A DNA stretch of 64,000 nt, taken from the NCBI GenBank assembly GCA_965649765.1, contig OZ287754.1, positions 36,394,001 to 36,458,000 of the forward strand, written 5' to 3'. This stretch comes from Bispira polyomma. Lineage: Eukaryota. The position numbers and the translations under genes were made by a program. Shown piece by piece: positions 30,631 to 64,000 of the stretch. Within the stretch, counting starts at the first letter, position 1. Each line of letters begins with the position of its first letter. The notes beneath the pieces are model-generated. The model had not been told where the DNA came from. It saw nothing but the letters and a program-made list of their open reading frames with translations, and did not search any database.

Positions 30631-32274
30631 TGGTAGACACAAACATTTATATAATATATGAATGTGTAAAAATTAACACGTACAATTATTAAAGCCAAAA
30701 TGGCCAGAAGCGAAGACAATGTATCTAGTGAAATTGTAAAACTAGAACAACACGGATCTAATCGGAAATATAATGGATTTTTTCTGAATCCATTCTTCAT
30801 TCCTCTACTAAAATTCATTTAATTGAGTTTAGTAGTTCCCATTTAATCCTGGTGACAAACCAATCAATCCAACTAACAAACAAAATTGATCGAAAATAAC
30901 ATCCATGTGTGCTGTAGGGGCATTGCTGGCAACTCGCCTCTCATGTCAAGAGTAGATTTGGTGAAGGCTGATAGTTTATTGTACAGAAACCTTTGACCAA
31001 CTACCCTGAACCTCTTTCCTCCACTGATAAACTGTCCATTACGATACAACACAGAGTTGTTGAAAGCGATATTAAACTGTAAATTAATTAAGCAACCCTT
31101 GGCAGAGGTAATAAATGACATTTGATTCCAGCTCATATCTCAAGTTTTCTACCTTTAAAATCCATGAAGTGTAGGAATGAGTTGAGGAGCCTCAACGTCT
31201 CCATTTTATCCCCCCATTTGGGATAGGCCTGAAAGGTGTCTGCTAATTCTGGATATTCTACACTCCTCTCATTTTGGACTTCTACGGATCTCTTGGAACC
31301 ATTGTGTCCCATGACTAAAGAATAAAATATAACTTGTAACACTAAATTGAAATATCAAGTCGGGTTTTACCAACTACACTTTAACCAGAGATACATAGTA
31401 CTTAGACTTGAGATTATTGGTGCATAATTAGAAACACTAAATCAATTTTGCTCAATTACTAGATAACACTTAATCTCCTTACATGTCTTGTTTAGCCAAA
31501 ACATTGTTGCTTGCCTATGACACGGCATGAGTAATGCTTGTGTGTTTAACATTCATCATGTGTGGACATAACTATTATGGATATCTTGTGAACATTTCGT
31601 ATTTTATTATTTAGTAAAACTATCAGCTATTACCAAATATTATCCAAATAATTAGCAATTGGTATCTGACCATTTATAACACGACTAATGTAAACCACAT
31701 TCAGAATGGCCAAAGTTGTTGGGCCACAACTATTGTGCCAGCAGTGTCACCAGTACAGATGCTATGAAATAAAGATGGAAGTGGAATTATTTTCTTAACT
31801 CTACATTCCCTGGCCATCGAGTTCAATTTGACATTCTACAGTCAGAAATATTTTTGGCTTTTTTATTTTAATATTTCATTACAATTCGATGCTTTCTTAT
31901 ATTTCACAACTGTCATTCAGAGATGTTGTGGTAATATGATACGTTTTACCCCTTCTTGGGATGTAAATCATGTTATGATTACCCCCTGTTAACAGTGACA
32001 AGGTTTGTTAATCTATTGATGCTATGTATTGAGCCATTTTTTGTTATCCATTTGTTTGTTTGGAGGTCGTGGCCTATCACATCACTTAATACGGTACTTT
32101 GTGGTATCAGTTTGAACTAGGTGTTGGTTAGCAATTGATCATTGGACCAATTTTACACAATCCGGTGGTTTTAGCTAATCCTCTGTTGATTTTATGATTT
32201 AAAATGTGTGCATTTATGACCAACTTCAACATTTTTGAGAGGTTTTCCAGGCTACGGTAGATTGACCCTTCGCC

Positions 32275-33305: not shown

Positions 33306-36300
33306 CAGGCTCCTGGGCTAGGTCCAGACTTGGTCTTAATCCTGTGTTCTGGAGTTCTTCTTTCTGGCTCGGGCAGCATCCGATCTGTTAAATATTGGAT
33401 ATGTTAAATCTTTTAAAATAGAAAAAAACTGACACAGCATACATATTTATTTGGTCAGTTAATATAAGTTTTCGCAGATACCAAGTTTTAAAAATTAAAT
33501 TAAAATCTGCTGACATTAGCTTAAGCTTTAGAGACCTGTGTCCTGATACTGTTTGACACATATTCTAGTATCTAGAGGAGTATTTTACGGCAACTCAACT
33601 TGTTATACACATAAGGTGGGCATTTAAGACACATTAAAGCCTGTAAATCAATCCACAATGTCATAACTGTAGTGAATGAAAGTAAAGCTTAGAGTGGTCG
33701 AGAGGTGACCTTAGTGAACAAAAACATTAGTATTACATCAGATATATTTAGTAATCCTTATAATAAGACATTTTTGAATTTTTACTTTTAAAGTTTCCTA
33801 TTTTATTCCTATCCTAGTTTACATTTGACTAATCCATTTTGGAATAATAAATGAATCAGTGCCTGAAACATGTGATTTGAATGACATTCATTTTATAATT
33901 TTGCTAACTCCCATTTTGTAACAATCATTTGCTTACCAAGTTTTCCACCAAAATCCACGAGTCCACTATTCTGTAACAAAATGCAAACAAGAAGTGACAC
34001 AAATGTCAGAATGATCAATCAGATGAGTCTCACGTAAAACTGCAAGAATTTATAATATCTCACAGCATCTCCTTAAAGTTAAGGCTACTATAACATAAAG
34101 TTAACCTCATTGCAGAGACTAAGTACAAACAAATTATTAAAGTTTAACTTTATTTATAAAAACTTTCAAGCTTTTCTTTAAAAAAGGGTGGCTAGTAGTT
34201 GATACAAGTATTTACCCTTGTAATTGCAATGTATGTTATGGTGTCATTTGTTTTAAAAGATCCATTTGACTATATTAATGTTCAAGCATATGTAATTGCA
34301 TATCCTAATACCCATAAACAAGTTAACAAATACATCATATATATATATATAGTCGGTGTATGGAATATTGAGGACGTAAGAAAGTGCATAGTAGCTGACT
34401 AAAATTGACGATACCTTACAAAACATATGCATAATATGCCCATCGGTTTATATTGCTTTTGATTAATTATCGCAATACAATACTTTGTTTTACATATTTA
34501 AAACATATTTAGAACAAATGCTCTGACTTTACCTTTTATAAACATAACTAATAGAACTATATTTCTGGAAGAACATATAGGCATACGCATTGCCAATGCT
34601 TTAATAATCCTTTAAATAATAATGTACAAATGTTTGTATGATAAGAAGGATTTCAAATAGTAGAAAAGAGATATGTATCAGCCAGATTCAAGCACTTTAC
34701 ATCCCAGGCCCAACTGAACATATCACCCTTATATTATCGGGTTTTCAGGCACTTTATCCCAATATATTTTCAGATGCCAAAAACCCAATTGGATTTGTTG
34801 TTTGAATTTACAAGAATGAACAGGTTCTAACCGCCAACTCAATAAAGTCAATGAATGCTTGTCTTGCCTATTTACTTACCCAGCTTGGAGCGCAGCATCC
34901 TTTCCATATTTGATACATAAATATCATAAAAATGCTACCTAGGCATATTAATTTCATATTTGCAATATTTCTGTTTAAGTTTTATTTACTCTCTTTAGTG
35001 TTGATTTTCTAACCTCCAAAGAGAAATTTTATCAGATTGGAAGTCTGTCAACGTTCTACTGCCTTTAATCTCCGTTTGAGCTTAATCACAACTAATTATT
35101 CTCACTAGAAACCAGATTCCTTTATAGGCAGATGACACTACCCTTTTAGCTTCATTAAAAAGAGGGGAGACTATTGTGTGATACAAAAAAAATAGTGAAG
35201 CATTTTCGTCACTTTGCTTTGTGTACATTTGTATATATAGGGGGCGGGAACTGTGTAGATGACAAAACTACTGGGATAATTACATCCGGGCTTTCTATGG
35301 CAGTGCAGACAATCTGGGGGTTAAGAGAGGTAAATTAGTAGTCAATTGGCAAGTTTAGTTTTGATGATCTACTTGAGGGTGTTCCAAACTGTCTGTGCTC
35401 ACCTGATGCCCTTTTATTTAACCTCCATGACACAGACTCTATAAAACACCAGATCACTCATATGTATTATCACTGTAACTATTCATCGTCAACTGTATGA
35501 GTTAATACAATTGCTGATGAAACCTTAGTTATTCCTCATTTAACTACTTCATAATATAGTATTTACAAACAGGAGACATGGACACTCTATTGATGAGGAT
35601 ATTATTAGGGATACAAGTCTAGTTTGAGATTTACTTAACATCTTAAGCTTTACTTGCACCCAGAAAAAAAATCTTAAATTAGATTTTTCAATTTACGTGA
35701 TCACTTAACTCGCCCAGGCCTAGGCATTCAAGAGATAAGTGTCATTGACTGCAATGAGCGTCTTTTATCAGCAATAAAAGTGTCCACCCACACCCTTTGG
35801 ATTATTTTTTGTCATATATAAATAAATAAAACCATTTACTTCTGCGACTCTATATTTATCCACGCCCTGTAAGGTTGAGGTAATGTGTGCTCTGTGTATA
35901 ATAATTGTGGCTTTTTGACAGGAGATAAATTATACAGACACAAGCAAAATGCACGGGTTTGAGGAATAAGTCCGAGATTTGTTGGGTTTTAGTTGAATTT
36001 TTTTTTAATTTTGCTGTTAACATGGTAATTTTGGAATATCTACATGGTGGGTGTACACTTCACAATCAGTTCATGGATTTTTTTCAAATACAGTCAAACA
36101 CTACAACAATTTATCTTTAATAGCATGCAAGTATTTGATTTGTAAAAGCTATAGTTCTGAGAAATAAATCTTTGATGTCTTATATTTTCATGAATATCTT
36201 GCATTAACTTTTCCGGGTTTTGCATATGAAGAAGCCGATTATTTAGTAATAACTCAGCAATTACTGAAGCTAAAACAATAATGAAAATATGGTCAGAAAG

Positions 36301-36883
36301 CTTAGTGTGCTTTTGTTGCATGAAATTTGCATGAAGATATTTAAGTTTAAATTCGGGTATCCCTCTTTTTTGCTGGTTTGTGGACTGCAGCTGAAGTGGG
36401 AAATTTTACGTGGCATGGTGTGACTGGAAAACATTACTTGAATTAGAAATAAATATAACCGATACCATATATTTGTAATCTAAATTGAATGCGTGCATTA
36501 TGACAAGCATCAGGTGTCAGTTTCCCCAAGTTGGGTTCAATAAAACCACTCATTAAGCCACCTTTGGCAGTAAATTTCCCGCCAAGAATTATTTACCTGC
36601 CCAAGAATAAACAATCTTGTCCTCATTATGGGGAAAAGCATTGAAGGAACAACAACTGAAAAAGGAACTACACTCCTTTTTGGAAGCCATTTTAACTTTA
36701 CATACAATCACAGGATATTTACTTACAAGATTTTATATAACTACAACATTTTAAAAGGAAAGACGCTATAATAACTATAAGTGCTTTTAATAGAAAGGAC
36801 GTTATATAATAAGTGTAGTAAATAGTGAAGTGGTGTTCTGTTACAAGTGCAACATCGGCAGTCTCGGCCTTGTGTAAGTCAGC

Positions 36884-38110
36884 ATGGGGCCTAAACAGAC
36901 CAGTAAGCAGCACAATACCAGAAGTAGGAATAGGGAGGTGTGTTACAAATGCAAGGCCAGTCATCGGTGGCCAGTAGGAGATCTCTGTACCAGGGAAGGA
37001 CCTCCCGACCAGACCCTGTCTTCTTCTGGGTCGGACAACCCGGATCAGTCTAATGCACCGGGTACATCTAGCCAACCACAGGATCTACAGGTGACACACA
37101 ACTCTGCAGCTGCAGGGGGGGATGAGTCATGAAACCAGTCAGTCAAGGCGAAGAAGAAACGCGTCGGCAATGCAGAGGTAGTAGCAAAGTTAGATTTATT
37201 TATGAGCAAATTGGCAAACCTGGAAGAGCGTGTGGCTCGACAGGAAGAACGCCGGGACACTGAATTGTCCCTCTCGACCCGGCCGTCAGCTCACAGCTCG
37301 CCCAAACGGAAAAGCACTGGTGAGAGGTCCGAAGGACGAGGACAGTCGGGCAAGGCTACCAAGCTGCCTACACTGGACTTCCTGTGGGGAAATACCACTA
37401 TTCAGGACGAAGTTGACAGAAGGTTAAGACAATATCAGGACGTATTCAGGGAAGACCTCACAGGTATTTTCATTAATAAAAAAACACTTAAGTCAGGGAG
37501 ATTACGTGTAGGGGATCAGAAGGTCAAGATTTCTGTTCCCTGGCTACATGAGCACTGTATGCTCAACGAAAACATGAAAATGCCTACATATGAAGACCTA
37601 ACACTGTGTCAGTGGGTTCAGGGCTATGCTCGTTGCGTGTTAGAGGAATCCGATGAGGAAGTGAGAAAGAACATGCTGCAGTACCAGTATTTACTGATGC
37701 AGGACGCTATTGATCTGTCCTGGGCTACGGCCAAAAGAGCACATGCAGCAGTGCTGTCCGAAATAGAAAGAGGAAATGTTACGTGGGAGGACACTGGGGA
37801 AATTGATCGGATCCGTCAGCGCTTTACGCAGAGGACCCTGAAAGGGGCTAGCTCGTCCATCTACAGTGGCTCGACTAAGGACCAGTCTCAGAACAGTAAG
37901 GTAACTGTGTGTCAAAAGTATGCAAAAGGGGTTTGTAAATTTGTAGGAGATCACTTTGAGGGGGGTAAAATGTTAAAACATTCTTGTGGCTATTGCTACA
38001 AAGCTGTCCATAAGAACTACGACCACCCCGAGGTAAAATGCAACAGAAAAGTAAAAGAAAGTGGCTCAAAGAGCCGTGATAATGGGGACAGGGCTGAACT
38101 GCGGGTTTAG
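36884..38110 (+). pseudogene. ORF1 gag-like protein with one in-frame TGA (37130-37132)
   Basis: The 82-aa ORF and 302-aa ORF share a frame (37202-36884=318) and the intervening codons are open. N-terminal CYKCKASH...DLC knuckle, coiled coil, KSGR.R.G motif, C-terminal CQKY.KG.C...H / H.CGYC...H...C zinc fingers. Confidence 0.8.
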
Positions 38111-40598
38111 TATAAAAAGGGCTCACTCTCACAGTATCACCAGTACTCGCTTACAAAGCAATCATTCTCAAGTAAAGGGGGGTATTGTAACAAATAACGA
38201 CATCTGGAAAAGTGGTTTCTGGCAAAGCAAACATTTAGGCCTTTGTAACTGTCAGTGGTGTGAGAAAGATACAAAAAATTATATATTGCAAGGATTTGAT
38301 ACTGTGGGCAGTGGTTTCCCTATGATGAGCTCCGCTACAGTAGATAGGGTGGATGAATGTAAATGTGTAATGGCAAACGCCACTTTGTTAGACAGTAAAT
38401 GTACCAGTGTCAATTACAACAGTTCTGATGCTAATGTAAGCTTCCTAGTTGATATCAATATAAACTACAGTGATAGTTTTTGGTTACACGAGTATCACAA
38501 TGTAAATAAGGCCAACAGTATTGACAAACATAGTCAGGTTAAGGTAGAGGTTAAGGACGACTCAGGGCTAGATGGTGTAATAGTCCATAATGTAGGGCAT
38601 ATAGAGAGTCTCATGTTTAATGCAGGCTCTGACGTGTCAAATCTGAACAGTGAAACAGGACAAGCCCAGGAATATTCGAGTAGTAGTGAAATTGGTAACA
38701 AGTCGATTAATGTCAGCACGGCCATCAAGCAAGGGCAATTTGGGGATATCCTTAAAAACAACAACGTCTGTGCACCCCCAACAATCAATCAATTAAGCCA
38801 GGGTGAAAGCCTAGTGGAGGACATTTCCTTACAAATAAAAGGGGGGAACCTCCAAGAATGGCTGGGAGGTTTTATTCCCATTCAATTAGGCCCCTTTGTG
38901 CAAATAAACAATAACACAGAAGGGGGGGAATTACAGAGTAGTGACATGGTGCAATGGATTGGGGAGGCACACACGTTAGCAAAACAAAAAGGCATACCTA
39001 ATTATAAAGGTGCTAAAGTGACAGTTCCCTCCCAATTAAATATCTCTGCCTGGCGTGCTTATTTAAAAGACTACGACCTCTCCATTGTTTGTGAATATTT
39101 ACAGTATGGTTTCCCCTTAACACTAGATTATAGTACTTTCCAGTACAGCTCACAAGTAAATAACCACTCGTCCGCAGTGGCTTACCCAATGGACGTAGAC
39201 AAGTATTTCAAAACTGAGGTTAGTTATAAGGCCATGGTGGGGCCTTTGAAAACTAGTCCCTTTGAAAACTTATATGTATCACCCTTAATGTCCAGGCCCA
39301 AACCAAATGGTAATAGAAGAATTATTGTGGACCTCTCATGGCCACGTGGAAATAGTGTAAACTCGTGTATACCTCAGAATTTCTTTGACAACATTGAATA
39401 TCAGCTGAAATACCCAACCATTGACAACATAGTGGAAAAAATTGCCACTCTAGGCCCACAATGTTTACTTTATAAAATTGACTTGCAAAGAGCCTATAGG
39501 AACTTAAGGACGGACCCCTTTGATTATTCTGTATTAGGCCTCAGTTGGCAAGGTAAACTGTATGTAGACATATCTGTCCCCTTTGGCCTTTCCTCTGGTG
39601 CATGCGCGTGTCAGATGAGGACTGATGGTATAACTTACCTCATGCACACTAATAATTATTGGGTATGTTCGTACCTTGATGATTGCATTGGGATTGCGCC
39701 TCCTGGAAAGGCTAGGTTAGCTTTCAAAACACTCTATAATTTAATACAAACACTAGGCCTGCCAATTAACCAAGACAAGGTGGATACTCCCACTAGTGAA
39801 CTAGTATGCTTAGGCATACAAATAAATGCACACACAGGGCGGCTCACAATACCCACAGACAAGTTAATAGAGGTTAAACAATTGTGTATACAATGGAAAA
39901 CCAAAACAAAAGCCACTCGTAAGGGTTTACAAAAGCTGTTAGGAAAACTCCTCTACATTCACCGGTGTGTAAAACCGGCCAGACTCTTTCTTAATAGAAT
40001 ACTTGGGGTTCTGAGGGGGACTCCCCCTGGCACAGCTGTTTCACTGGGTAACGAGTTCTACAAGGATATCAATTGGTTTTGTGAATTCTTGGAAGAATTT
40101 AACAGGGTTACTGAAATACACCAGATTGATGGCATAATTAATCAAGTTTATGTAGATGCATCACTAAATGGCTTGGGGGCCTACTGGGATGAACAAGTTT
40201 ATTCAGTACACATACCTCAACACAATAAGGACAGCCTTACTATTGTACATTTTGAGATGGTAAATGTAATTGTGGCTTTTAGACTATGGGGGCCCACATG
40301 GGCCAACCAAAAAATATGTGTCCACTGTGACAACTTAGCTGTGGTTCACATACTTAACAGATGTAAATGTAGAGACCCTTTTCCAAATGCATGTGCACGC
40401 ACATTATGGCTGTTACAGGCAACTTATAACATTGATATTTCAGTACAACATGTAAGGGGTATTGATAATACTTACGCTGATTTGTTATCACGTTGGGAGC
40501 ACTTTAAGAATACAGACAAGTCTGATGTAGCTTATTTACATACCTGTACATGGCATGAAGTAGATCCAACATGGCTCGTACCTAATTTTAATATTTAA
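38061..40598 (+). CDS. ORF2 reverse transcriptase + RNase H of the YR retrotransposon (845 aa, long variable N-terminus)
   Basis: YGFPL, RRIIVDLSWP, KIDLQRAYRNL, VPFGL, SYLDD, LGL.IN.DK, LQKLLGKL. RNase H motifs VDAS, HFEM, CDN.AVV, G.DN..AD.LSR. Confidence 0.95.
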   Translation: MAQRAVIMGTGLNCGFSIKRAHSHSITSTRLQSNHSQVKGGIVTNNDIWKSGFWQSKHLGLCNCQWCEKDTKNYILQGFDTVGSGFPMMSSATVDRVDECKCVMANATLLDSKCTSVNYNSSDANVSFLVDININYSDSFWLHEYHNVNKANSIDKHSQVKVEVKDDSGLDGVIVHNVGHIESLMFNAGSDVSNLNSETGQAQEYSSSSEIGNKSINVSTAIKQGQFGDILKNNNVCAPPTINQLSQGESLVEDISLQIKGGNLQEWLGGFIPIQLGPFVQINNNTEGGELQSSDMVQWIGEAHTLAKQKGIPNYKGAKVTVPSQLNISAWRAYLKDYDLSIVCEYLQYGFPLTLDYSTFQYSSQVNNHSSAVAYPMDVDKYFKTEVSYKAMVGPLKTSPFENLYVSPLMSRPKPNGNRRIIVDLSWPRGNSVNSCIPQNFFDNIEYQLKYPTIDNIVEKIATLGPQCLLYKIDLQRAYRNLRTDPFDYSVLGLSWQGKLYVDISVPFGLSSGACACQMRTDGITYLMHTNNYWVCSYLDDCIGIAPPGKARLAFKTLYNLIQTLGLPINQDKVDTPTSELVCLGIQINAHTGRLTIPTDKLIEVKQLCIQWKTKTKATRKGLQKLLGKLLYIHRCVKPARLFLNRILGVLRGTPPGTAVSLGNEFYKDINWFCEFLEEFNRVTEIHQIDGIINQVYVDASLNGLGAYWDEQVYSVHIPQHNKDSLTIVHFEMVNVIVAFRLWGPTWANQKICVHCDNLAVVHILNRCKCRDPFPNACARTLWLLQATYNIDISVQHVRGIDNTYADLLSRWEHFKNTDKSDVAYLHTCTWHEVDPTWLVPNFNI

Positions 40599-40608
40599 TT
40601 ATTTGCAG

Positions 40609-41566
40609 GTCACCCTCTGATAACTGGGTTGCTTCGAGATGTCAATACAAGGGTGTCCAAAGGATTCAGACCCCGCACTTCCACAGCCTATCAGGCAATG
40701 TTCAGGCTGTACATAGCCTTTCTAGCATACTTAAAGGTTAAGTCTCACACTCACCTTAATTCAGTGCTCCTTTTTCTAGAGTTTTTGGCCCAACAGGGTC
40801 TCAAGTCATCCACTCTCACAGGCTACATTACAGTGTTAAAACATTTCTTCCAAATGTATGACCTCCCCACCGGGGCTCTGTACCACAAAAAAGTGACTCT
40901 AGTCATTAAGTCAGTAGCAAATAATGCCCCACTTACATACAAAATCAAAGGTATTTTCTCCCCGGCTACACTGCAGCAGTTAGTTGCCTTGGCAACAGGG
41001 TTTCCTGGGGCTAAACAGTATAGGGCAATCTTTTTACTAGGGTTCTTTGGGTTCTATAGGTTGGCCACATTAGTGCCAAATACTGCCTCCCAGTTTCAAC
41101 CATCCAGGTTTCCAACAGAGAGTGACGTCATTTGGGGTTCACCTGGGGCGCATATCCTCACTAAGTGTGCTAAAAACATGCAAAAGTCGGGTCAGTTGCA
41201 AGTGGTCCAGATTCCTGAGCTTCCCAACTCACCTATCTGTCCTGTTAAGGCCTTGAAACGCATTGTGCCCAGAGACACCTCCAACAAGATGCCTTTATTT
41301 AAATGTTCTCATAGGGATACAACTGTAATCATAACTGCTTACCAGGTCAGGAAGGTACTGGCTTCACTCCTCACCAGGCTTGGCCTCCCTCCAGCCGAAT
41401 TGGGGTTCCATGCACTCCGACGTTCGGGGGCCTCGTGGGCTTTTGACCATAATGTTGAATTAGATCATATAAAAGTCCATGGGGGCTGGCGCTCAGACAC
41501 TACCTTATCAAAACCCCATTGGCGGCAAGTAAGGTTGCAACCACATTCACACAACATCTTACATAA
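40609..41566 (+). pseudogene. ORF3 tyrosine recombinase with a frameshift just before the catalytic Tyr
   Basis: FFGFYRLATL (R), CPV.AL, FHALRRSGA (H-x-x-R), HGGWRSD (H/W). After 41500 the expected Y-L-I-K-T-P...TFTQHLT* continues in another frame (TAC at 41501, TAA at 41564-41566). Confidence 0.88.
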
Positions 41567-41659
41567 ACAAGCTCATATTCCTACCTGTTTGGGTTGGTAG
41601 ATAATTCTAAACCTACAACATTAGTGTAAATAGTTAAGTAGTACAGTAACTAACAAGTT

Positions 41660-41935
41660 AATAGGTTAACCTTAAAGCTCAACTTAAGCTTAAGATAACC
41701 TTAACTCATAAGGTCACCTTAAAGTCACAGTGTAGTGGCCCTCATGTGTTAACCTTACCTCAAGATAGGGACAGCGGTTTACCAGGTAAGGTCACCATAA
41801 AGTCACCAATAAAAGTGCAAGCTAATGAATTGCCACGATTAACCTCCCCTATAGTTAAGGACAACTTGTGTTAGCATTAAGGTCACCTTAAAGACAAGTT
41901 AAGGCCTCGGCCATGATTTAAGGTGACCTTATGTC
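41660..41935. repeat. Cluster of palindromic TAAGGT(C/G)ACCTTA / GTTAACCTTA motifs in the 3' non-coding region of the YR retrotransposon
   Basis: taaggtcacc(t/a)taaag at ~41709, 41787, 41878; taaggtgacctta at ~41919; gttaacctta at ~41665 and ~41748. Confidence 0.7.
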
Positions 41936-42284
41936 AGTAGAGTAGTGATTAACCCTGTATAATTTGTGTGTGTATGTAATAAAGCCCAAAAGATGTAATA
42001 AACTCGTTTTTACTCTCTGCCTTATGTTCCAAAATACACTTGTATCAACTTAGATCACCTCGATCTCTTACCTTACAGCTTGGGGAAACTGATACCACAG
42101 GTATGCCCTACTTTTTGACGACAGAATTTAATAAAAAATTAGATTCTGCAATAACGGTAGTTTAGTACAACACTGGTGAAATCAAGGGTTCCAAATATTT
42201 AAATGGTCTAAACAAATAACATAAAGCTTAAAGTGAGAAAATTGCATCAGAATATTTGTTTCAAGAGCTAAAACTTTCCATTAA

Positions 42285-43837
42285 TACCCGTGTTTCACTA
42301 CACCGATCATAGACTCTGACCGTTATGATTATGTGATCAGGGGATACTCGAATACATAATCAGGAAGGTTGAGGAGGTCGTAATACTTATCTTTGATTTT
42401 GGGGCCACTCAGGATCCTTTGGCAAAAAAACCTTTGCGAGTGGGTGATTATTGGCCAATAAGTCATGGTCACTTGGGGCCACTCATAACCTTTGTTACAA
42501 AGGCCCGAGTAAAAATATAACTCAGGGGAAACAAAAGATAACTTGGGGGTGACAAAAGATAACTCACGGAGGACGTTAGAGACAGTGAATGAGGAGGAGT
42601 ACAGGGAGTTTCATCGGGGAGAAGACACTTCTGGAAGAAAGCGTGCCAGAGACACAGCTGTCACAGATGGGTTTGTTGTCGCAGGATGAGACACAGGAGA
42701 CACAGGACACCGCTGGGGATATTGAAGTGGCTGGTATCATCAGGAGGCAGAAGGAGAAAATGAGGAAAGTTTACTTATGGATGGCCAGGAGGAGGCTGTG
42801 GTGGGATTGGTGGGTCATCTTCTGGATTTTGTGCTGTATTGCCTGATTTATAGTAGTGGTTCTCATCATATTGTGTAGGACGACACAGGCTAGGGCTACA
42901 GTGGCTACCACTGGTAGTTCTTGCTGCATGGTAGAGAGTAGAACCCTGAACCTCTGTACTAGGATGCTAAAGGAATTCTCTACCACCCTTCTCCCTTGGG
43001 AAATCTTGTAGTTGTAAATCCTCTCATTCGTGTCCATGCCTAATTTAGAGAAGGGTTTCATATGCCAGGTCTTCAGTACAAAGGCATCATCTGCAAGGAT
43101 AAAGTAGGGGATTGGGTGCCTAAAAGGGCTTATGGCTTCAGGAGAGGGGAAGTTGATGGACTAATCTGATATCGTCTCCTTAGTTCTGACCTATTGAAAT
43201 CTGGGAATCTGAGCAGGACCCACTAGATCCCAGGTCGACCCACAGGAACCTGTACTCTCTGTCTACCAAAGACCTTCACCTCCCCACTACCAAAGAGTAC
43301 TACAGTGATGTGTATGACTCCTTAGTCGCCAAATGTCTCAAAGTGATAGCTATCTTGAGTCCAGGTGACAGTGGTTTTCTAAACCAGGTGGTCTGGTCTG
43401 TATCCTGTGCCCCACCCTCCTCTCCATTTCCTGGAATAATTCTGGGGCATCCTCAAAATATTCATCAGAGACGTCTTCTTCTTCCTTCAATGTCTATATT
43501 AGCCATTACTTGTAGTTGCATGTAGGCAAGTAAACCTTGGAGGCCTCTTGCAATTTCTATTAATCTCTATGGAACCATCTCTTTCAGTTGACTGAACAGT
43601 TAAAACTGACTGGATACATGGTTCCACCCTCTTTATATATGTTTTTTGGGGGGGCAATCTGGAGGTTTCGAGGTTTGTATGACTTATCTTTTCAGTCGTT
43701 AACCACTACGAGTATAATCGAATGACACACATTTTCGCAAGCTTTATGCCACAGATCGGGGAACAATGGGGTAAAAATGACCACAATCAAATTATTGGGG
43801 CCTTGCCCCAATCGATCGGCTAAGTGGAACAGGGGCT
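42285..43837 (-). mobile_element. Internally deleted PIF/Harbinger DNA transposon with a decayed DDE (HARBI1-like) transposase
   Basis: TIRs TACCCGTGTTTCACTACACCGATC / rc AGCCCCTGTTCCACTTAGCCGATC (17/24). TAA TSD at 42282-42284 and 43838-43840. Minus-strand peptides: FRKPLSPGLKIAITLRHLAT, LVDREYRFLWVDLG, PYFILADDAF..KTWHMKPFS, YNYKISQGRRVVENSF, ACVVLHN. Confidence 0.88.
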
Positions 43838-44369
43838 TAATACCTTAACCAGTGTTATACAACTTGTGCAACCCCTTAAGGTCTTTACTAAATTGCCGTC
43901 AGTTCCAGTGTCTGAATCAATAACTACATCATTACATTCAAAAATGACATTGATAACCAATGGCAACTCCTTGAATAGTTCCTTGTGATTTTACAAATGT
44001 TTTAAAGCAAAATAGGAGCATGTATTTGTACGGACTGTGGTTATTCAAATCAGCCAATCCTATTCGATTGTGGTCCAGTACTTTACATTCACTTGTGTGT
44101 CATGACTTATAAGAACAGTAGATCAAACTTTTTCATGTGAAAAAGTACGCAAAAATTACTTTATAAATAAAGATTGCTACCCATAACTGATGTCCTTTAT
44201 CAATAAATACAATCATTGCAGTATAACATAACATACTGAAAGTTATGTATGAGCAAGTGTTCAGTAAGTCCAAATAAACTAAACTCCTGCGTAGTACTAG
44301 TTTTTACCATTAAAAGCTGGAATATACATTTCTCCAGAATAGTAATTTAAGAATTTTCTCCAAGTCATT

Positions 44370-44487
44370 ATGTCATTGTGAATTAGGTCATAAAGTCATT
44401 GTGAATTAGGTCAAAAGGTCATTGTGAATTAGGTCATAAAGTCATTGTGAATAAGGTCATAAAGTCAATGTGAATTAGGTCATAAAT
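44370..44487. repeat. 23-bp tandem repeat (~5 copies)
   Basis: Unit 'gtcattgtgaattaggtcataaa'. Confidence 0.9.
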
Positions 44488-44939
44488 TTTCAAACAGATA
44501 TATCAATTCAGGGCACTTCTGATTAGGCCTTTTCCACACATATTTACCAATTTAAGGCAGTTCTAATCAGGCTTTTTCCAAGCAGATATATCCATTCAGG
44601 GCAGTTGTAATCAGGCCTTTTCACACAGACATATCAGGGTGCATCTAAGCCATACATCAAACAATGATTTAAGAATATGGTTAACCACTTTTAATCTTGA
44701 TGGTTAACTTGTATAGGGTAGATTTGAAATGTAATTATGCATTTAATTGTATCTGTCACAGTCTGATATTGCCTTGATGCTTCCCAGATTACTACGTTAC
44801 AGTGAATACACATACATGAAGAAATGACAGGTTATGATACACTTTGATATCACAAATATCACCACTTGTTCCATATATCAGTAAAACACGGGTGATATGA
44901 TATCAATCATACAGTTCGCTTAATATAAAAGTTGACTAT

Positions 44940-47900
44940 TTATCCTTCACACTGGGGTGTAATGAAGCTTTTTGTAGTCATAGTAACTGCTCCATCATTG
45001 GTAGAAAACAAGAAGCAGATTCTCTGCTCCGCCTCGAATGTAAAGGAATATGTAGCAGATTCTGCAGAAGCTAAAGTTGCACAATGGATGTAACTCCTGG
45101 CAGGTAATGACAGAAAGTACCCACTGCTTGCACCTGGGCTCGAATTTTTGATGGCCTTGACATCTATGACGTCACATGGAAGATCAACTTCAACAGGAAG
45201 AAAAACATTCATGGAATGTAATAGTTCAGTTGTTATAAATGTATATCATTCGGACACAAAGTTTTTGGGTTGCATATCATTATTATTATTACTTACGATG
45301 TATAATTATATATATATTTAAATATTTTGAATTCCTAAATTGCATTAAACCTTAATAATCAAAATTGTCTTGCTTTTACTGCAAAAGCAATAATGCGACA
45401 GGGTATTAACAGAGATTATAATCCACTGTATGAAATCAATTAAATGCATATCAAATGTATATATTTCTGAGTACACTTTAAGAATTCTGACAAATAAAAA
45501 AGACAAAAAAAAAAATCTTGATTAATGATTTTAAAAATCCTGTGTTCTTACCTCCAAGAAACAGATCACTCGGTACAAATTCAATATTACAGAGACATAC
45601 CTCCTATTAACAGATCACTCGGTACAAATTTAATATTTTAGAGTCTTACCTTCTAGTAACAGATCACTCGGTACAAATTCAATGTTATAGGGACATCTGC
45701 TCAGCCATTTGATGTTACAAAGGCAGGGGATGGGGTTTGAAATTAGGTACAATTTAAAACCATCTGGGCTGATTGAATCGAACCTGGGTTTACAATATTC
45801 TGGGAATGTTTGTATGTCATTTGAGTAGAGACCAATTTCCTCCAACGACACCGCGTCCAGGTGGCCAAGTGGTAAAACTGTGCTAATAGAGTTTTCCCCA
45901 AGACATAAAGTTTGCAAGTTAACAAAACTTGCAAAGTGCTTAAGATCTAAGGTGATTAGTTCATTGTCAGTGAGACTCAGTTCTATGAGAGTGGCCTTCG
46001 TAAAGTCAAGGTCGGGTAGTTTAGTGAGTTTGTTAGTATTGGCATGGAAAACCTGCAGTGTCGAAACCTGGTCACTGATGATGCTCATATCTAACTCTTC
46101 ATCGGTCATAGATCGGTAGGAAAGACTGTAACGTAAAATAAACAACAGAACATTATAATATGTACAACCCCCTCAAAATAGGCTACCACCTCTTTATAAA
46201 TACCGCCTAATTCTGCTTGACTGCAGTCATATTCTGAAATGATACACAATGTATTGACGGTTGTACTGTTTTCATAGATCAATGACGATAGACGTAGATG
46301 TATAATTTATTTATTTCATACAGAATAGGTTGTTGTTAATACAGTTATACACCTGACATTGTTGAACGTCATTATAATAGTACTACCTTGGATAATAAAT
46401 TTATCAAAAGACAAGTGTTCCATGTGTTGGCCTTTTTTAGTGTTAAGCCCTGTTGCCATACAAGCAGAGACGGTGGTGGGAGTTGAACGGTGATGAACAG
46501 TGAACAGAATATAAAGTTTGCTTTGCTGTTTGGTTTCTGGTGACACTGAACAAATGAGAGGCAAAACATATTTTTTACCACTGGGTAAAGTATGCCATAA
46601 TACTTATTGGAAGAACTTACGACTTGTATTGGCCTACTTATGGTATGGTTACTTTTTTTCGATGAATAATTTCACATAGCAAAACGATAATGTACCTGTA
46701 CTGTAATTACACTCCTATAGTGGTATCATTGTTAAAAAGCAAATTTGTTTTACTTCAAATATTTAAAAACAATCAATTATGTCTAACTGTTGTAATTATT
46801 TTAATATACAGACCACAAGAAAAATATTTTAAAGGTAACAACGATTATTTGTTTTACACCAGTCTGAGGTCCTGGTTTAAAAGGACGAGGTGTGTTTGTG
46901 TTACTCAAAAATCCTTTAAAGTCAAAGGTGACTGTTAAATACTATGTACAAAGTACAATAATCTGTAGTCCAGACTAGAAGTCTGAAAAGCTTTGGGACT
47001 ATATCACATATAACACATGACCTTCTTATAACACAAGTATCTCATAGGGGTGACTAGAGATTTTTTTATGTCAGTACTACAGTAAATTCTATAATTTTCT
47101 GTTGTCGATTACATACTCTAACCATTGTGTATCCCACGGTATGTCCGTTGGTAGGTTTAGTTGATCACTGCCATAGCACTGATATGTTTTGTAAAGTGTA
47201 TTGTCATCGACAAAGCTCCTGCCAAAATAACCAACACCCGGATTGCAGGACGAATATACCTGGGTCCACTGTATGACGAAAATCAATGCTCCTAAATTTT
47301 TTGGGGAAAAAATTACAATTACAAAAGTATCATATACAAATGAAAAACTTTGCAGTGATTTAACAAAAGTAGCTGCTGTTGATTTTAAATGACTGATGTA
47401 TGCAAACAAAAGAATTGTTTAAAAATATTATATATATTATTGGGATGATCAAAGCATTGCATTGCACACTAAAATGTCAGTCAGCAGAATGCATTTTCAT
47501 CTCTCAGGTTGTCACATACACATAACCTCAACAAATGTTTTTTTACTATTCTGCCACGTTCCACCCTGGTGGAGATCTGCAATTCACTATAATGGCTTCC
47601 CACTGGACCCATGTCCTAGCCCTATACAGAGTGCCACCCTGGTGGAGATCTGCACTACACTATAATGGCTTCCCACTGGACCCATGTCCTAGCCCTATAC
47701 AGAGTGCCACCCTGGTGGAGATCTGCACTACACTATAATGGCTTCCTACTGGACCCATGTCCTAGCCCTATACAGAGTGCCACCCTGGTGGAGATCTGCA
47801 CTACACCATAATGCCTTCCTACTGGACCCATGTCCTAGCCCTATACAGAGTGCCACCCTGGTGGAGATCTGCACTACACTATAATGGCTTCCTACTGGAC

Positions 47901-50339: not shown

Positions 50340-51777
50340 GAATAATTATTATTATTATTATAGATTTTTAACGCGCTTTATTCATGCTAGGAATCTTCTA
50401 AAGCGCAACAGCAGAATCATTAGTCCAATCATTAAGTCCATGGAAATTGCATAGTCGTAAGGAAGGAAGTGGGAGCGTGCACGAGGAAAGCTAAGGTGGG
50501 TAGACAAGATTAAAAAGATAGGTATTAAGCTTTTTCCTAAAACCGATAAGTGTGTCAACTGATCTGAGGTCAACTGGGAGACTGTTCCATAACCGTGGAG
50601 CTGCGGTGGAGAACGCTCTGAAACCCGCCTTTCTGATTGGTCTGACCGAAGTGACAGAGAGTCTGTTGCCTCTCTTGCGGTTACTGAAGGAAAGAAGGGA
50701 GGTAAGGTAGGGTGGCTGTTGAGTGATTACAGCCTTAAAAGTGGTAACGTGAATTTTAAACAAAATTCGAGATTTAATGGGCAACCAGTGTAATTTTTTG
50801 AGGTAAGGAGTGATGTCTGTGCGACAACCCAGGCGAAAAATGACCCTACATAGGTAGTTTTGGATGGACTGGAGATTTTTAATGGTGAACTTATTTGCTT
50901 CGTACAAGAGAGAATTGCAGTAGTCTAGGCGGCTACTTACAAGGGCATTTGCCACAGTTATCGCTGTGTCCATGGACAAGTGGTTTCTGATTCTTGTGAT
51001 GTCGCGTATGTGGTAATAGCAGGAGCGACAGATGTTGGCAACATGAGTATCGAACGAAAAAGCTGAATTAAAAGTGACACCCAGGTTTTTAGCATTTTCG
51101 GAAGGTAGTATGTCTTTTCCCAGCAGGGAGATAGGAAACAAAGATTTTAGGAGTTCACTGTTTTTCTTGTTTCCTATGAGGATGAATTCTGTTTTGTCAG
51201 GGTTAAGCTTTAGTTTGGAGTAGTTCATCCACGCCTGGACATCAGACAGACAGTCTGCAAGTAGGTCTATGTTAGTATCTGCGTTTTGTGGATTGAGGGA
51301 GAAATAGATTTGAGTGTCGTCTGCATACATGTGGTGTTTTATATTGTGTTTATTGATGACAGTGCTGAGAGGATGTGTATAAAGGGTAAAAAGTAGAGGA
51401 CCAAGGACGGATCCATGGGGTACTCCATATGGAAGTTTTATGGAAGATGATAGGTGATCATCTAGTTTAATTCTTTGTGCCCTAAGAGTAAGGTAGGATC
51501 TGATCCATTTAAGGACACTGCCATTTATACCGAACCACTGCTTGAGAGTGTCGCAGAGCAGGACATGATCAATAGTGTCGAATGCAGCTGAGAGATCCAG
51601 AAGGGTGAGGGCCACTGTGTCGTTGCGGTCCAGTGCAAGATTGATATCATTGCTGATGAAAAAAAGGGCACTTTCTGTAGAGTGAAATTTTCTATAAGCA
51701 GACTGGTGGCGATTTTCAATGTTTTGTCTATTAAGGTGGTCAGAAATTTGTTTAGCTACAGCTTTCTCGATGACTTA
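50340..51777 (-). mobile_element. 5'-truncated L2/CR1-clade LINE (RT C-terminal half, 3'UTR, (AAT)n tail)
   Basis: ORF 51615-50491: LLDLSAAFDTIDH, GVPHGSVLGP, YADDTQ, LKLNPDKTE, SRLDYCNSLL, LHWLPI, APRLWNSLP. Upstream frameshifted KVIEKAVA..QSAYRKFHSTE. Tail at 50341-50360. Confidence 0.93.
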
Positions 51778-51779
51778 AT

Positions 51780-51960
51780 GTATACAATAGGAAATTAAGT
51801 ATTGTGCATCTAGAGATGATCAACATTGTCCTGGCCCTACGTTTTTGGGACAAATATTGGGACCAACAAAAAGTAGTAGTCCATTGTGACAACATGGCTG
51901 TATTCTTGGTCGTTGACACACAGAAAACTAAAGATGAATATTTAGCACTTTGCTTAGTAA
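51780..51960 (+). mobile_element. RNase H fragment of a second, decayed DIRS/Ngaro-like element
   Basis: SIVHLEMINIVLALRFWDKYWDQQKVVVHCDNMAV..KTKDEYL aligns with TIVHFEMVNVIVAFRLWGPTWANQKICVHCDNLAV..RDPF of ORF2 at ~40240-40390. Confidence 0.85.
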
Positions 51961-52514
51961 TGTTAAGGGATGGCAGGGTGGAATAGGAGCTCTAAATGAC
52001 TACATCTCCCTCTGCTAGGGCGTCTGGGATTCTAATACTAGCCATGCCGTCACGTCACCTCTTGCTCAACTTAGTGCTTGCAAACACGTTGGCTCACTGG
52101 TCAATAATTTATAGACTGTTTTAGATTGTCAAAATATATTGTCAGGGAGGATGGCCATAAAACTTGCCTTGTGTTAACATGGTTAACCCGTCATGTTACA
52201 CATGTGGACCACAACAGGTCAATTAATACTGTTTAGTGTCATAGCTAATTGCGAGGTGGAGCAGGTCACCGCACCAACCAGTTTAGTGCTTCCCAGTATT
52301 TTTGCCAACTAAACTCCATCTATTTAAATTGGCAAACATTTGAGAGTACTATTTAACTGTGGCCAAATTACCCCTTTCCTTCACTTTTGAAAGTCAAACT
52401 AAGGAGGCAGGACGCCATTTTATAAAAACAACAAAATATTTCACAAATCCCACCTCCTTCTCCATTATCATTTCATACTACTCCTCCCATATGTTTTCAC
52501 TACCGCCGTGCCGG

Positions 52515-53440: not shown

Positions 53441-54649
53441 AAGTGCCAGAGGGAGCAAAGTGCCAGAGAAAGGGTCTGTGATGGCTCACTTAATGCCTGT
53501 GATGCAGGGGTAGGCGAGGGGGTGCTGGGGTGGGGCTTTGAATGTACCTCTCTTGCACTTTGATATCTCATTGTGTGTCATGGTGGATTCTTCCCCCTTG
53601 TCTTCACAAATACTACTGCTACACCAGGCAGCCGGTTATGCTTTTGGGGTAATGGAAGAGTCAAAAACCCCCACATTCATACAAAATAAGATCACAATAG
53701 ACTAGGGTATATGCATTTCAGACTGTATGTTATTTAAATGTCATTAAAATTTTATTGATATACTCATTGACTGTATATTATGTAAAATGTTGTCAAAAAT
53801 TGTGTTTATGTGATGTGCATAAAACATTAACCAGAAAGCTAACAAAGTGTCTGCAGTTTCAGATCCGCCACAATGAAAATATCAGACGTTACACAGTCCT
53901 GCTAACTCAGTCAAAGGCAAAGAGCTGTCAACTGTAAACATGCATACAAATCATGCCAGTTGTAGTGGATCTACTATGCCAGCTCTCCACTGTGAATGTA
54001 ACTAAGGGGTGATATAATACTGACACCTAAAGCTCAGTCTCTGGGACACGTGGACTCTTATAATGAACTCCAGAATTGAGTGTCTCTTAAGCTAAGGTTT
54101 TAGTCTTTTAGCTAGAAGTGGAACTATTTTACATAAATTATACATTTTAGTGCTTTTTATTGCTATATTCATATAACTTTTACAAGCTTACCATGTTGTG
54201 TGAACTTAATGCCACGTGTATACCAAATTTAATTCAAAAATGTAAACTTGTTTGTGTCCCTTTTATTACAGTAACTCATATTCTAAACTCACAGTTAAGG
54301 TTACCTTAATGTTTAACCTTAACTTTAGTTTAGGGCAATCTTAAACTCATACCCTAACTCAAGGTGACCTTAAATATTTTATACTAATAATGTAAATGGC
54401 ATAGAATATCTAAACCTTTGAAAGTATTAAAATCAATATTCCCAAATGAAAGTGTTTTTACTAACTTCATGCACATGTCACTATCAGAGGCACTGTATCT
54501 AAATTTGTGTAAACAGGGGTTAACTCATGTTTAGCTCACTAATAATAGGAAGCTGGTTTCACAAACTATACATGTCATATAGAATAACCCGTGTTTAGCT
54601 TCTGTCAATAGGACAGTTGATTGTTCATTTCCTTGTTTTGAAAAAATAC

Positions 54650-54994: not shown

Positions 54995-56312
54995 GTGACA
55001 AAAGGTGAACCTACAGCACTAGTCCTCCTCGACCTGTCGGCAGCTTTTGATACTATTGATTATGCTACCTCCCCTTAATACTTATCGTCCTGGTTTGGCT
55101 TTCATGGTACAGTTCTCAAATGGTTTACTTCATATCTCTCAAATCGATTTCAGTCTGTCAAAATAGGCTCCACTCTGTCAGAGTTGTTTAAGCTTGAGTT
55201 TGGTGTTCCACAAGGGTCAGTTCTAGGTCCAATCTTGTTTTCTTTGTACACTACTCCGCTCAGCTATATCATCAGCAAACATAGCAATATCAAGTACCAC
55301 TTTTATGCTGATGACACACACCTGTATGCTCATCTCTCATATAAAAATGCCACAACTGTTCTTGACAGTCTAAAAAGTTGTCTCTGTGATGTTCAGAAAT
55401 GGATGTTTGCCAAAAAGCTTAAATTAAACCCGGATAAGACCGAGTTTATACTATTCAGATCAAGAGCACAGGCTGATAGATTGAAGAATTTTTTCCCAGT
55501 CAATATTTTAGGAAACAAGGTGTACCCTGCAAATGCTGTCAAGAACCTGGGTGTGTGGTTTGATTCTGTGGTTTTCCTTCTCCAAACAAGTTCATGAAGT
55601 TTGCAAGTCTTGCTTCATCCAAATGAGGGATCTAAAAAGGGTTGGGCGCTACTTGTCAGCCAGTACTGCTACTATAGTTGCAAATGCCCTGGTTAGAAGT
55701 CATCTTGACTACTGTAATTCTCTTTATAGAAGTTTATCCAAGGCTGACATCCGTAAGTTGCAATGCATCCAAAACTCGTTAGCCAGACTGGTGGCCAACC
55801 ATTCCAAGTACTCCCTTGTTACTCCTGTTTTAAGAAATCTCCACTGGTTACCCATTGAGTTTAGATGTATGCTCAAAACAGCTACCTTAGTCTACAAATT
55901 TTTAAATTATGGCCTTCCAGCATACTGGAATCCATACCTCACACTTTACACATGCAGTCATAATACTAGAAGGAGCAGACCGGAAAAAAGTTACCTGACC
56001 GTTCCAAGATTTATGTCAGCAGTACACAAATCTAAACGTCAGTTTAACAATAGCTTTGCCCATGATGCTCCAACACTTTGAAATGAATTACCTGTTGAAA
56101 TTCGTTGTGCAACCTCACTCACATCCTTTAGAAAAAAACTTGAAACCTACCTATTCGACAAGGCTTTTCCACCATAGCCCTAAATTCACCTGGAGTCTCC
56201 ATGGTGCTGACCCATGCTTGTCTAATGCAAATTGAATAATGATACTGTCCTGCGCCTTAGAATCCCCTTAGGAGATATTAAGCGCTATAAAAGTTAGATT
56301 AGATTAGATTAG
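54995..56312 (+). mobile_element. 5'-truncated, frameshifted L2/CR1-clade LINE with (TTAGA)n tail
   Basis: DKGEPTALVLLDLSAAFDTID, GVPQGSVLGP, YADD, KLNPDKTE, SHLDYCNSL, LHWLPI. Frameshift at ~55570, stop at ~56081, ORF end KAFPP* at ~56177, then a ttagattagattag tail. Confidence 0.92.
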
Positions 56313-62037: not shown

Positions 62038-62870
62038 AGACAGTTGTGCCTTTGATGTCATGTGTTGCTAGTTCTTCACTGCTACAGCCTGTTATAGTTA
62101 TCCAGGAGGCCAGCGTTATACCAGCATCTGACATAGTGACAGTTGTGCCTATGATGTCATGTGTTGCTAGTTCTTCACTGCTACAGCCTGTTATAGTTAT
62201 CCAGGAGGCCAGTGTTATACCAGCATCGGACAGTGTGACAGTTGTGCCTGTGATGTCATGTGTTGCTAGTTCTTCACTGCTACAGCCTGTTTTAGTTATC
62301 CAGGAGGCCAGTGTTATACCAGCATCGGACAGTGTGACAGTTGTGCCTGTGATGTCATGTGTTGCTAGTTCTTCACTGCTACAGCCTGTTATAGTTATCC
62401 AGGAGGCCAGTGTTATACCAGCATCGGACAGTGTGACAGTTGTGCCTGTGATGTCATGTGTTGCTAGTTCTTCACTACGGTAGCCTGTTATGGTTATCCA
62501 TAAGGCCAGTGTTATACCAGCATCTGACATAGTGACAGTTGTGCCTGTGATGTCATGTGTTGCTTGTTCCGTACTGCTACAGTCTAGTATGGTTATCCAT
62601 AAGACTAGTGTTATACCAGCATCTGACAGTGTGACAGTTGTGCCTGTGATGCCATGTGTTGCTTGTTCCTTACTGCTACAGTCTAGTATGGTTATCCATA
62701 AGACTAGTGTTATACCAGCATCTGACAGTGTGACAGTTGTGCCTGTGATGCCATGTGTTGCTTGTTCCTTACTGCTACAGTCAAGTATGGTTATCTATAA
62801 GACCAGTGTTATACCAGTATCTGGCAGTGTGACAGTTGTGCCTATGATGTCATGTATTGCTATTTCTTCA
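62038..62870. repeat. 99-bp tandem repeat (~8 copies), open reading frames on both strands
   Basis: Period 99 (gacagttgtgcct at 62138 and 62237). The minus strand encodes TVTLSDAGITLASWITITGCSSEELATHDITGT repeats. Confidence 0.95.
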
Positions 62871-64000
62871 GTTTCGGGATGGGTTGACTGAAGCAATGGA
62901 GTGATGAGGCAATCTTGTGGTGTCATTACCTAGTCAAGTGGACATATTGTCACATGTAATTGTAGCTGTGTATCAGTTTGCTCGGATTTTAAAAGGTAAG
63001 GTTAATGAAGGTTAGTATATGTAGTGTGTGAAGAGATGTAGTAAAACGAATGGTTTGAGCATTTATTCCGTACATTTGAAGACATTAGTTCACAGGGTAA
63101 AAGGGGTTAAAATTATTTTTTTTAAATTGTAAAGATAAAGTTAAAACACCCACAACGATGGTGTTTTTCTTTGGCAGGGCCTTTATTATACTGAAAAGCC
63201 TTGTTGGACAAGATATATAAATGTTTAAACATGTTCTTTTAACAAGGTTCTCTTTTTATACATAAGTGTTATATAACTATATGCTGTACTAGGTATGTTT
63301 TATGTATTAACAGCACAGCACAATTAATACATTTCAGATAATGTTTAGACATGCAAAACAGCACATATTTTGGGTGAGTTCGAATAAGAGGTAATATTTT
63401 TGATATGGGTTTCTTATTCATGGTTTAAGTAGTTGCTTCTAAATAATTTGAATTTAGTCAGAATTGACATCGCTTTCAACAGCTTTGGTCATATCATGCT
63501 GGCCAGATTTATTAACATTTGAGCCATTCTGATGTCGGCCGATGCAGTGCTTTTTTCATCCGATATGTAATAAATATTTGTGGGATGTTGATGGTCAAGA
63601 AAGCTTATTGTATTACAATTGCTTTTTTTGCATCAAAAACAACGGATAATAATAATATGAAGACTGAATTTCCCCATTTTTTTTGGAAAGTTGGACCGAC
63701 CTCCCAATTTTTGTACTCCCAGAGTAACATCTGAAGGTACAGACATATGCTGACATCAGATCAGATCTCACAAAAATCTGATCAAAGGAAGTACTTCATA
63801 ACATATAATAGTGACCGATAAATTTGGTCGTCTTCACCGACATTGGCCAGCAAAAATCAGCTAAAAAGAAAGCATTGGCTTAGCCGATCAACCGGTGCGA
63901 GGCCCAGATAATTTGCTCATGGTCATTTGGAGGCATTTTACCTTATTGTGCCCTGATCTGTGTCAAAAAGACTAAAAAAATAAGTCCCTTCAGCTTATAC

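Follow-up and report, generated by a model that had tools for sequence, protein, structure and literature searches.

How does a retrotransposon that moves by means of a tyrosine recombinase mark its ends, and how are those ends restored, when the copy at hand carries neither an internal complementary region (ICR) nor split direct repeats? The question is raised by a 5.6 kb element in a 64,000-nt stretch of the Bispira polyomma genome (assembly GCA_965649765.1, contig OZ287754.1, forward-strand positions 36,394,001–36,458,000; hereafter the window, from whose first letter all coordinates are counted). The element is a tyrosine-recombinase retrotransposon of an animal genome with gag-like, reverse transcriptase (RT)/RNase H and recombinase open reading frames (ORFs), all of them, like the other features of the element given below, on the + strand. 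Its ends had been described, in what we call the original prediction, as a recombinase att site with short terminal inverted repeats, a palindromic circle junction and a duplicated CAGGT core. We find that it is best read (probability about 0.5) as a broken young copy of a Ngaro-type element, extending from ~36477 to 42096/42097, that has lost its split repeats, has hairpin-forming ends and uses ATACC as its recombination core.

The recombinase of order DIRS retrotransposons is described as lacking experimental characterization as of 2020 (PMC7192593), and an inverted repeat that spans the end-to-start junction, together with a core that matches the target, offers a concrete substrate for this enzyme and separates duplex models from folded single-strand models. 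For DIRS-1, an internal copy of the junction has been shown to be needed to restore the ends (PMC7192593). If the family truly lacks both the ICR and split repeats, it breaks this rule and represents a third end architecture for the order; if split repeats exist in the family, what the window holds is a decayed Ngaro-type copy of the ordinary kind, useful for a single detail of its structure.

Ends of the element in other copies

The element was found as contigs in three runs (X1–X3), which represent at most two samples of a single study and supply all the contig evidence used here. Depth in run X1 was ~140–205 over the element and ~17 in the flanks, approximately a tenfold difference (depth being no copy number), and the long contigs of the element differ from the window copy by ~0.2–2% (98–99.8% identity). 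The family is young, with roughly ten close copies, and the window copy is likewise young and now broken by an in-frame stop in gag and a frameshift in the recombinase gene.

The contigs were built from a 31-mer graph (PMC12424806), consistent with the overlap of exactly 30 nt between contig records 18 and 19, so that a single-copy contig ends 29 nt inside a repeat. The right single-copy contig begins at 42068 in all three runs and the sequence common to the other copies therefore ends at 42097, before CAGGT; a conserved CAGGT would have placed the contig start at 42073. CAGGT does stand at both junctions of the window copy, as originally predicted, but the right one (42098–42102) is flank of this copy and is not shared by the others, whereas the left one (36511–36515) has its last three letters within an arm of the inverted repeat. 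Thus, CAGGT is no family core, and the right break at 42097 is the firmest result against the att-site reading.

The left single-copy contig ends at 36506, again in all three runs, whereas the ends originally proposed would have it stop at ~36540 or later (36540–36542 for an element ending at the arm or at the core). The likely start of the common sequence is 36477; as this point is ~35 nt beyond the inverted repeat, the left arm would be internal. The segment 36477–36512 would then be the outer left end, to which both the contig end and an element-free contig that leaves the left flank at 36479 (see below) point. Positions 42097 and 36477 are both A, and one end-to-start junction sharing that A fits both contig breaks exactly.

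The inverted repeat itself is real and somewhat longer than the 18 bp first described. Its arms (36513–36533 and 42076–42096) are 21 nt long with 19 paired positions (90% complementary), including an exact run of 14 nt. An exact inverted match of 14 nt, as between the first and last 100 nt of the element, was reached by two of 19,868 random pairs of 100-mers drawn from the window (p ~1e-4), and the 14-nt arm pattern occurs in the window only at these two sites, even when 2 mismatches are allowed. Both mismatches between the arms are G-T on the + strand, which lends weak support to a folded substrate. Elsewhere, 32100–32113 is an exact 14-nt reverse-complement match to 42086–42099 that lacks the G-run and is probably a chance match. 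The letters and coordinates of the two junctions agree with those originally given. The 39-bp palindrome obtained by joining the ends is a construction, not an observed sequence, as is the reconstructed empty site; the palindrome folds strongly (z -9.2), which follows from the arms alone, and since the left arm is probably internal there would be no lox-like palindrome in the family.

Two terminal regions can be tentatively delimited. The putative A region (36477–36670, right limit approximate) is covered at roughly double the depth of the sequence that follows it and contains AATAAA at 36539 and 36606. The 3' non-coding region (41588–42097), a putative B region, forms a long fold-back with repeated modules, has AATAAA at 41978 and 41997, and by eye carries a GGGTT-type motif, AATAAA and a T/G-rich tract in the same order as in related elements. 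In the fold-back (41586–41991), the GGGTT-type motif behind the recombinase gene pairs with sequence after AATAAA and encloses a 17–20 nt module in three direct copies and one inverted copy; in the relatives, the GGGTT-type motif and the post-AATAAA sequence lie much closer together.

Empty-like sites and a candidate recombination core

Only one element-skipping joint was present among the 15 joints listed of 57. It leads from 36479 to 42135 and was present in each of the three runs at the depth of a single copy; by eye, the 37 letters between these points can be aligned with 42091–42127 and not with 36480–36510. In this element-free contig the right flank (42098–42240, limits approximate) is continuous with the left flank, which ends at ~36480. 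A second empty-like contig meets the right flank at 42099. Its loose letters correspond to 36466–36480 and are followed by ATACC, its last ten or so letters resemble 36503–36512, and it departs from the window at 36507. In both contigs ATACC, the last five letters of the element, stands directly after the point where homology to the left flank stops. These contigs may be paralogues rather than alleles. Neither reads as the reconstructed empty site did, although the second resembles it over its final ten letters or so, and the 15 joints listed include none of the form expected from the reconstruction (~36506–36515 to ~42099–42103).

ATACC(A) (42092–42097) comprises the last letters common to the other copies and is also native to the target, which makes it the best candidate for the recombination core. 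With a recombinase gene present, no long target duplication at the element and its last 5–6 letters matching the target, recombination at a short common core appears to be the likely route of insertion. To this extent the proposal of lox/att-style recombination into junction-like targets stands, but its details fail, and the general scheme is not new: in the established model for order DIRS (PMC3266345; PMC7192593), which is also the standard one for the class, elements insert by way of a short core at their junction whose letters are those of the target.

Gene content and classification

The gag-like ORF (36884–38110) has Cys/His clusters at each end and, in the window copy, an in-frame stop at 37130–37132. 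It matched no Pfam family above the cut-off and owes its label to its position; tblastn found matches to it 5' of pol in many related loci. The pol ORF (38055–40598; 847 open codons) encodes RT and RNase H and narrowly missed the curated cut-off for RVT_1 (E = 3e-06, 27.5 bits against 29.6). The tyrosine recombinase gene (40599–41600) matched Phage_integrase and Phage_int_SAM_1, in both cases just under the cut-offs. Because the Pfam scores sit just below the cut-offs, the class assignment is carried by the homologue alignments; the searches returned 327 relatives of pol and 48 of the recombinase. The recombinase alignment shows invariant R154, H271, R274 and H294/W297, and the catalytic tyrosine column is present in all 14 homologues and lost from the window copy through a frameshift near 41497–41499, just 5' of that column. 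Contigs of other copies differ from the window copy at the frameshift site. The recombinase frame (40599–40612) has no 5' start codon and opens after a pyrimidine-rich tract ending in AG, which suggests that the recombinase is probably made from a spliced transcript.

No methyltransferase was found 3' of RNase H in the window copy, and none of the 103 homologues that reach the C-terminal part (among the 120 listed) extends by more than 7 residues. The nearest Atlas clusters are eukaryotic, mostly from Mollusca; no relatives were found among viral contigs, and no Rfam families were found in 35500–43000.

The combination of gag-like, RT/RNase H and tyrosine recombinase genes with no DDE integrase, in a dispersed, multi-copy element with defined ends (approximately tenfold depth, single-copy contigs breaking at both ends), places the element in order DIRS. 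Its gene content, with no methyltransferase behind RNase H, is of the Ngaro type as defined in PMC4157794 and PMC9210276. The window copy does not show the split direct repeats A1-B1-A2-B2, nor does it have the long inverted terminal repeats (its own measure only 21 nt), the ICR and the methyltransferase of DIRS1-like elements. Thus, the element resembles Ngaro in the genes it encodes, yet the window copy, failing the split-repeat test, is filed under order DIRS only.

Split repeats in relatives and, possibly, in the family

The original statement that the window copy has no ICR or split repeats was confirmed by self-BLAST (word size 7), by a 25-mer scan of both end regions against 35001–45000 and by a search for internal copies. 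The idea that the 3' region contains a miniature ICR, or a copy of the junction, was dropped, since the longest internal matches there are 6–7 nt, at chance level. The depth of the contigs hints otherwise for the family: at 36658 it exceeds that of the main contig by 0.7–1.0 times in the three runs (336 against 173, 3246 against 1938 and 413 against 206), and position-level arithmetic shows the excess nearly gone in the bin 36664–36904. Such an excess, which spans the leftmost ~190 nt, would be expected from a second A copy, from solo AB units or from short derivatives. A bin-level excess at both ends was set aside, being confounded by repeated flanks and overlapping contigs.

We gathered 51 related loci at 32–44% pol identity and compared with themselves the 32 that are at least 3.3 kb long, most of which miss one or both ends. 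Split direct repeats were found in four of the 32. L041 has the complete A1-genes-B1-A2-spacer-B2 layout, and L004, L008 and L051 have A and B repeats with a C-rich spacer as in L041, partly tangled by assembly. These four sit on both sides of a quick RT/RNase H tree (66 rows, midpoint root, effectively unrooted), which was used only for placing them. Long terminal inverted repeats with an ICR were found in none of the 32. L016 and L020 are single units without internal repeats and with unique flanks on either side, in L012 and L024 the sequence passes from B via A to gag, and L009, L018, L026 and L028 were assembled as loops without a spacer; repeat collapse in assembly could yield all three forms alike. 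Overlaps at the junctions of the relatives vary, and are short and rich in A/T. On the window's side of the tree five loci were scanned, and three of them (L004, L008 and L009) have strong hairpins 3' of the recombinase gene, after an AATAAA-type signal (z -5.0, -7.5 and -7.7). The new route of end regeneration originally proposed is therefore unproven, given the ordinary split repeats in these four relatives and the depth that hints at a second copy of the left end, and split repeats in the family are somewhat favoured.

Several further features of the relatives were recorded. A C-rich tract opens the spacer in all four relatives with a resolved A2 end (L004 5499–5520, L008 711–730, L041 9583–9605 and L051 1510–1530), and in L004, L008 and L051 it looks by eye complementary to a G-rich motif at the start of B. 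In the sub-clade of L012, L015, L016, L020, L021, L024, L039 and L041, the 3' end consists of a G-run followed by a short A/T tract and the start is C-rich; an upstream arm can pair with the AATAAA region, and in L041 this arm precedes B2, not B1. A palindrome in L021 (92–114) was dropped as a junction, since the copy there is 5'-truncated and the palindrome belongs to the foreign sequence that precedes it. L051 is a contig with a eukaryote-type retrotransposon in a genome labelled as a Planctomycetota metagenome-assembled genome, probably through host contamination.

A proposed mechanism and its alternatives

We propose that intact members of the family would have the order A1-genes-B1-A2-spacer-B2 and would use the internal B1|A2 junction to restore their ends. 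The window copy would have lost A2 and the spacer by recombination between B1 and B2, or by collapse in assembly, leaving A-genes-B without repeats; published descriptions of Ngaro copies include some that lost their split repeats, as well as solo AB units (PMC9210276, PMC8547959). The inverted repeat would bracket the B|A junction asymmetrically, its right arm forming the end of B and its left arm lying ~35 nt inside A, so that the joined ends may fold as a long hairpin with the arms ~35 nt apart and the core in the stem. The recombinase would cross over within the short ATACC core, at the inner end of the right arm, a core that is also present in the target. Crossover at the target-matching ATACC(A) would yield the right junction as observed. 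The left junction would be expected to contain AATC twice, 9 nt apart, and losing the interval would give the observed letters; the missing left core may reflect a 9-nt slip or resolution at the 4-letter AATC match between the target and the element start. With the core in the stem and not between the arms, a folded single-stranded junction in the style of attC and CTX phage would fit better as the recombinase substrate than a lox-like duplex. Both attC and the attP of CTX phage are recombination sites formed by folded single strands. The cDNA of DIRS-1 is described as single-stranded and mostly linear (PMC7192593).

Several observations weigh against this mechanism. The relatives examined as DNA share 32–44% identity with the element, and the closest ones (50–58%) are not among them. 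Neither A2, the spacer nor B2 was seen for the window's family in its contigs; the 15 joints listed of 57 include none that leads from an A end to a B start, although contigs with only 30-nt anchors could be missed. At ~98–99.8% identity to the main contigs, the window copy is young for a loss of split repeats, and the extra left-end depth, for which there is no clear match at the right end, could stem from short derivatives or a sister subfamily. The absent left core needs an extra event, AATC being expected there by chance at ~0.006, and capture by two short matches would give the same left-junction letters. As the second empty-like contig leaves the window at 36507, the contig end on the left could instead reflect a branch leading to an empty allele that is close to the original reconstruction. 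The segment 36477–36512 folds no better than shuffled sequences (69% of shuffles are as low), and an inner hairpin there, no better than in shuffled or random spacers, was dropped. Finally, an unbiased scan for 3' hairpins gave z <= -4 in 9 of 20 loci and in 5 of 20 coding controls (15 shuffles per window), so that a hairpin conserved in all relatives was rejected and is a hint for L004, L008 and L009 only, and four of eight hand-picked regions of relatives had no significant hairpin.

If the family has neither an ICR nor split repeats, which we regard as possible but doubtful, the 21-nt inverted repeat would form a hairpin across the end-to-start junction, the ends would be rebuilt from tandem or circular templates and the folded junction would pick targets that match its stem. 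In one specific form of this idea, the ends and core are the same as in our proposal and the whole family is of unit length; its ends would be restored when a tandem or excised circular copy is transcribed through the point where end meets start, which gives a terminally redundant RNA. The young, repeat-free window copy, the AATAAA signals just inside the left end (36539 and 36606) and the lack of a spacer joint among the 15 listed agree with this, as do the single units, the B-through-A-into-gag relatives and the spacerless loops; but those relatives are metagenome assemblies in which collapse of B1/B2 and A1/A2 could mimic such forms. No RNA run was listed as containing the stretch, and the 15 joints listed of 57 include none from the element's end back to its start, as a circle would give, although rare molecules would be lost from contigs. 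With four relatives carrying split repeats and the left-end depth doubled we consider it unlikely. Slightly less probable still is a relaxed version of the original geometry, in which the element ends at the arms (36513 and 42096), the circle is a near-perfect palindrome with a short variable spacer and insertion is lox/att-style into palindromic targets that mimic the arms. The arms are real and their constructed junction folds strongly, though from the arms alone; an end at 42096 with free flanks would allow the right break (probability 0.30–0.55), the target has a right half similar to the arm and, in the empty-like contigs, is a palindrome in its native state, and one of these contigs resembles 36503–36512. 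However, the left single-copy contig stops 34–36 nt too early for this in all three runs, within 4 nt of the point where homology to both empty-like contigs stops; the window allele would have to carry 22 unrelated letters at the position of ATACC; a palindromic junction elsewhere in the genome would push the common sequence to 42102; and a joint from ~36506–36515 to ~42099–42103 is absent among those listed.

The original prediction in its strict form, with CAGGT as a conserved core duplicated at the ends of every copy and the empty site as reconstructed, appears highly improbable. In its favour, CAGGT stands at each junction and is surrounded by a 4-bp palindrome in the reconstruction, but three of the five letters are forced (on the left by the arm, on the right by the target palindrome), the junction overlaps of the relatives are short, A/T-rich and variable, and the contig start at 42068 in place of 42073 contradicts it in all three runs unless the break is an artefact. 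An element proper of 36481–42091, with AATC and ATACC belonging to a preferred target and ATACC pairing with 36513–36517 of the folded element, or with a linear cDNA captured by short matches at both ends, would have no duplicated core at all. This would account for the absent left core without a deletion, suits the single-stranded, mostly linear cDNA of DIRS-1 (PMC7192593) and places the end where a diverged contig (record 15, run X2) stops, at 42091. A merge with the last 30 letters of the main family would account for that stop just as well, the other copies would have to share 4 and 6 flank letters (chances of 6–11% and <1% in the absence of target preference), and the scheme departs from the published model of a short core flanking both ends (PMC7192593), which together make it quite unlikely.

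Other features of the window

Remnants of a second, related recombinase retroelement lie at 51774–51965 (+ strand) and 54265–54412; among them are a piece of RNase H (41% identity, profile E 7e-20) and sequence that weakly resembles the 3' region at 41598–41770. They are adjoined by ORFs that by eye encode LINE-type RT (50494–51774 and 55079–56078). A decayed DDE_Tnp_4 transposase, which we take to be of the Harbinger type, is encoded on the - strand at 42771–43160, within ~42280–43840, and 43742–43824 matches 63879–63970 in inverted orientation at 73%. The window further contains a host exon of 1249 codons (14113–17859), a leucine-rich-repeat exon on the - strand (45630–46172), tandem arrays of 23-, 44- and 49-nt units near 44341–45696 (including 44341–44622) and a tandem-repeat ORF region (62039–62888).

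Comparison with known systems

Typical duplex recombinase sites have arms of 11–13 bp around a spacer of 6–8 bp (PMC3212892). The element shares with lox/att-type sites its inverted arms and short core, but the junction as originally drawn has a 3-bp spacer, whereas the one derived from the contigs has ~35 nt between the arms and the core within the right arm; nor is CAGGT conserved at the junctions of different copies, the common sequence stopping at 42097. Cryptons have terminal direct repeats of 4–6 bp that are seen as recombination substrates, and a circular intermediate has been proposed for them (PMC3212892); they differ in being DNA transposons without RT or terminal inverted repeats. 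A short inverted repeat bracketing the junction was not described in the literature searched (including passages of PMC6681497, PMC13465315 and PMC3783388), a search whose scope left out the main reviews and Repbase.

DIRS1-like elements likewise have inverted repeats near both ends and insert through a short core that matches the target, with no target duplication (PMC3266345). Their inverted terminal repeats measure 66–316 bp and their ICRs 85–130 bp, and they encode a methyltransferase (PMC3266345), whereas the window copy has arms of 21 nt, no ICR and no methyltransferase. PAT-like elements and VIPER are recombinase retroelements with split direct repeats, and VIPER also lacks a methyltransferase (PMC4157794); PAT, unlike the element, has a methyltransferase, and VIPER is described only from kinetoplastids (PMC9210276).

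The comparison with Ngaro-like elements, which are abundant in molluscs and cnidarians (PMC4157794), rests on gene content and published descriptions, the tree including no named Ngaro sequence. The window copy differs from them in having no split direct repeats and in the 21-nt inverted repeat that brackets its end-to-start junction. The likeness lies in the gag, RT/RNase H and recombinase genes in one orientation, the absence of a methyltransferase, the length of ~6 kb and the existence of relatives with A1-genes-B1-A2-B2 repeats.

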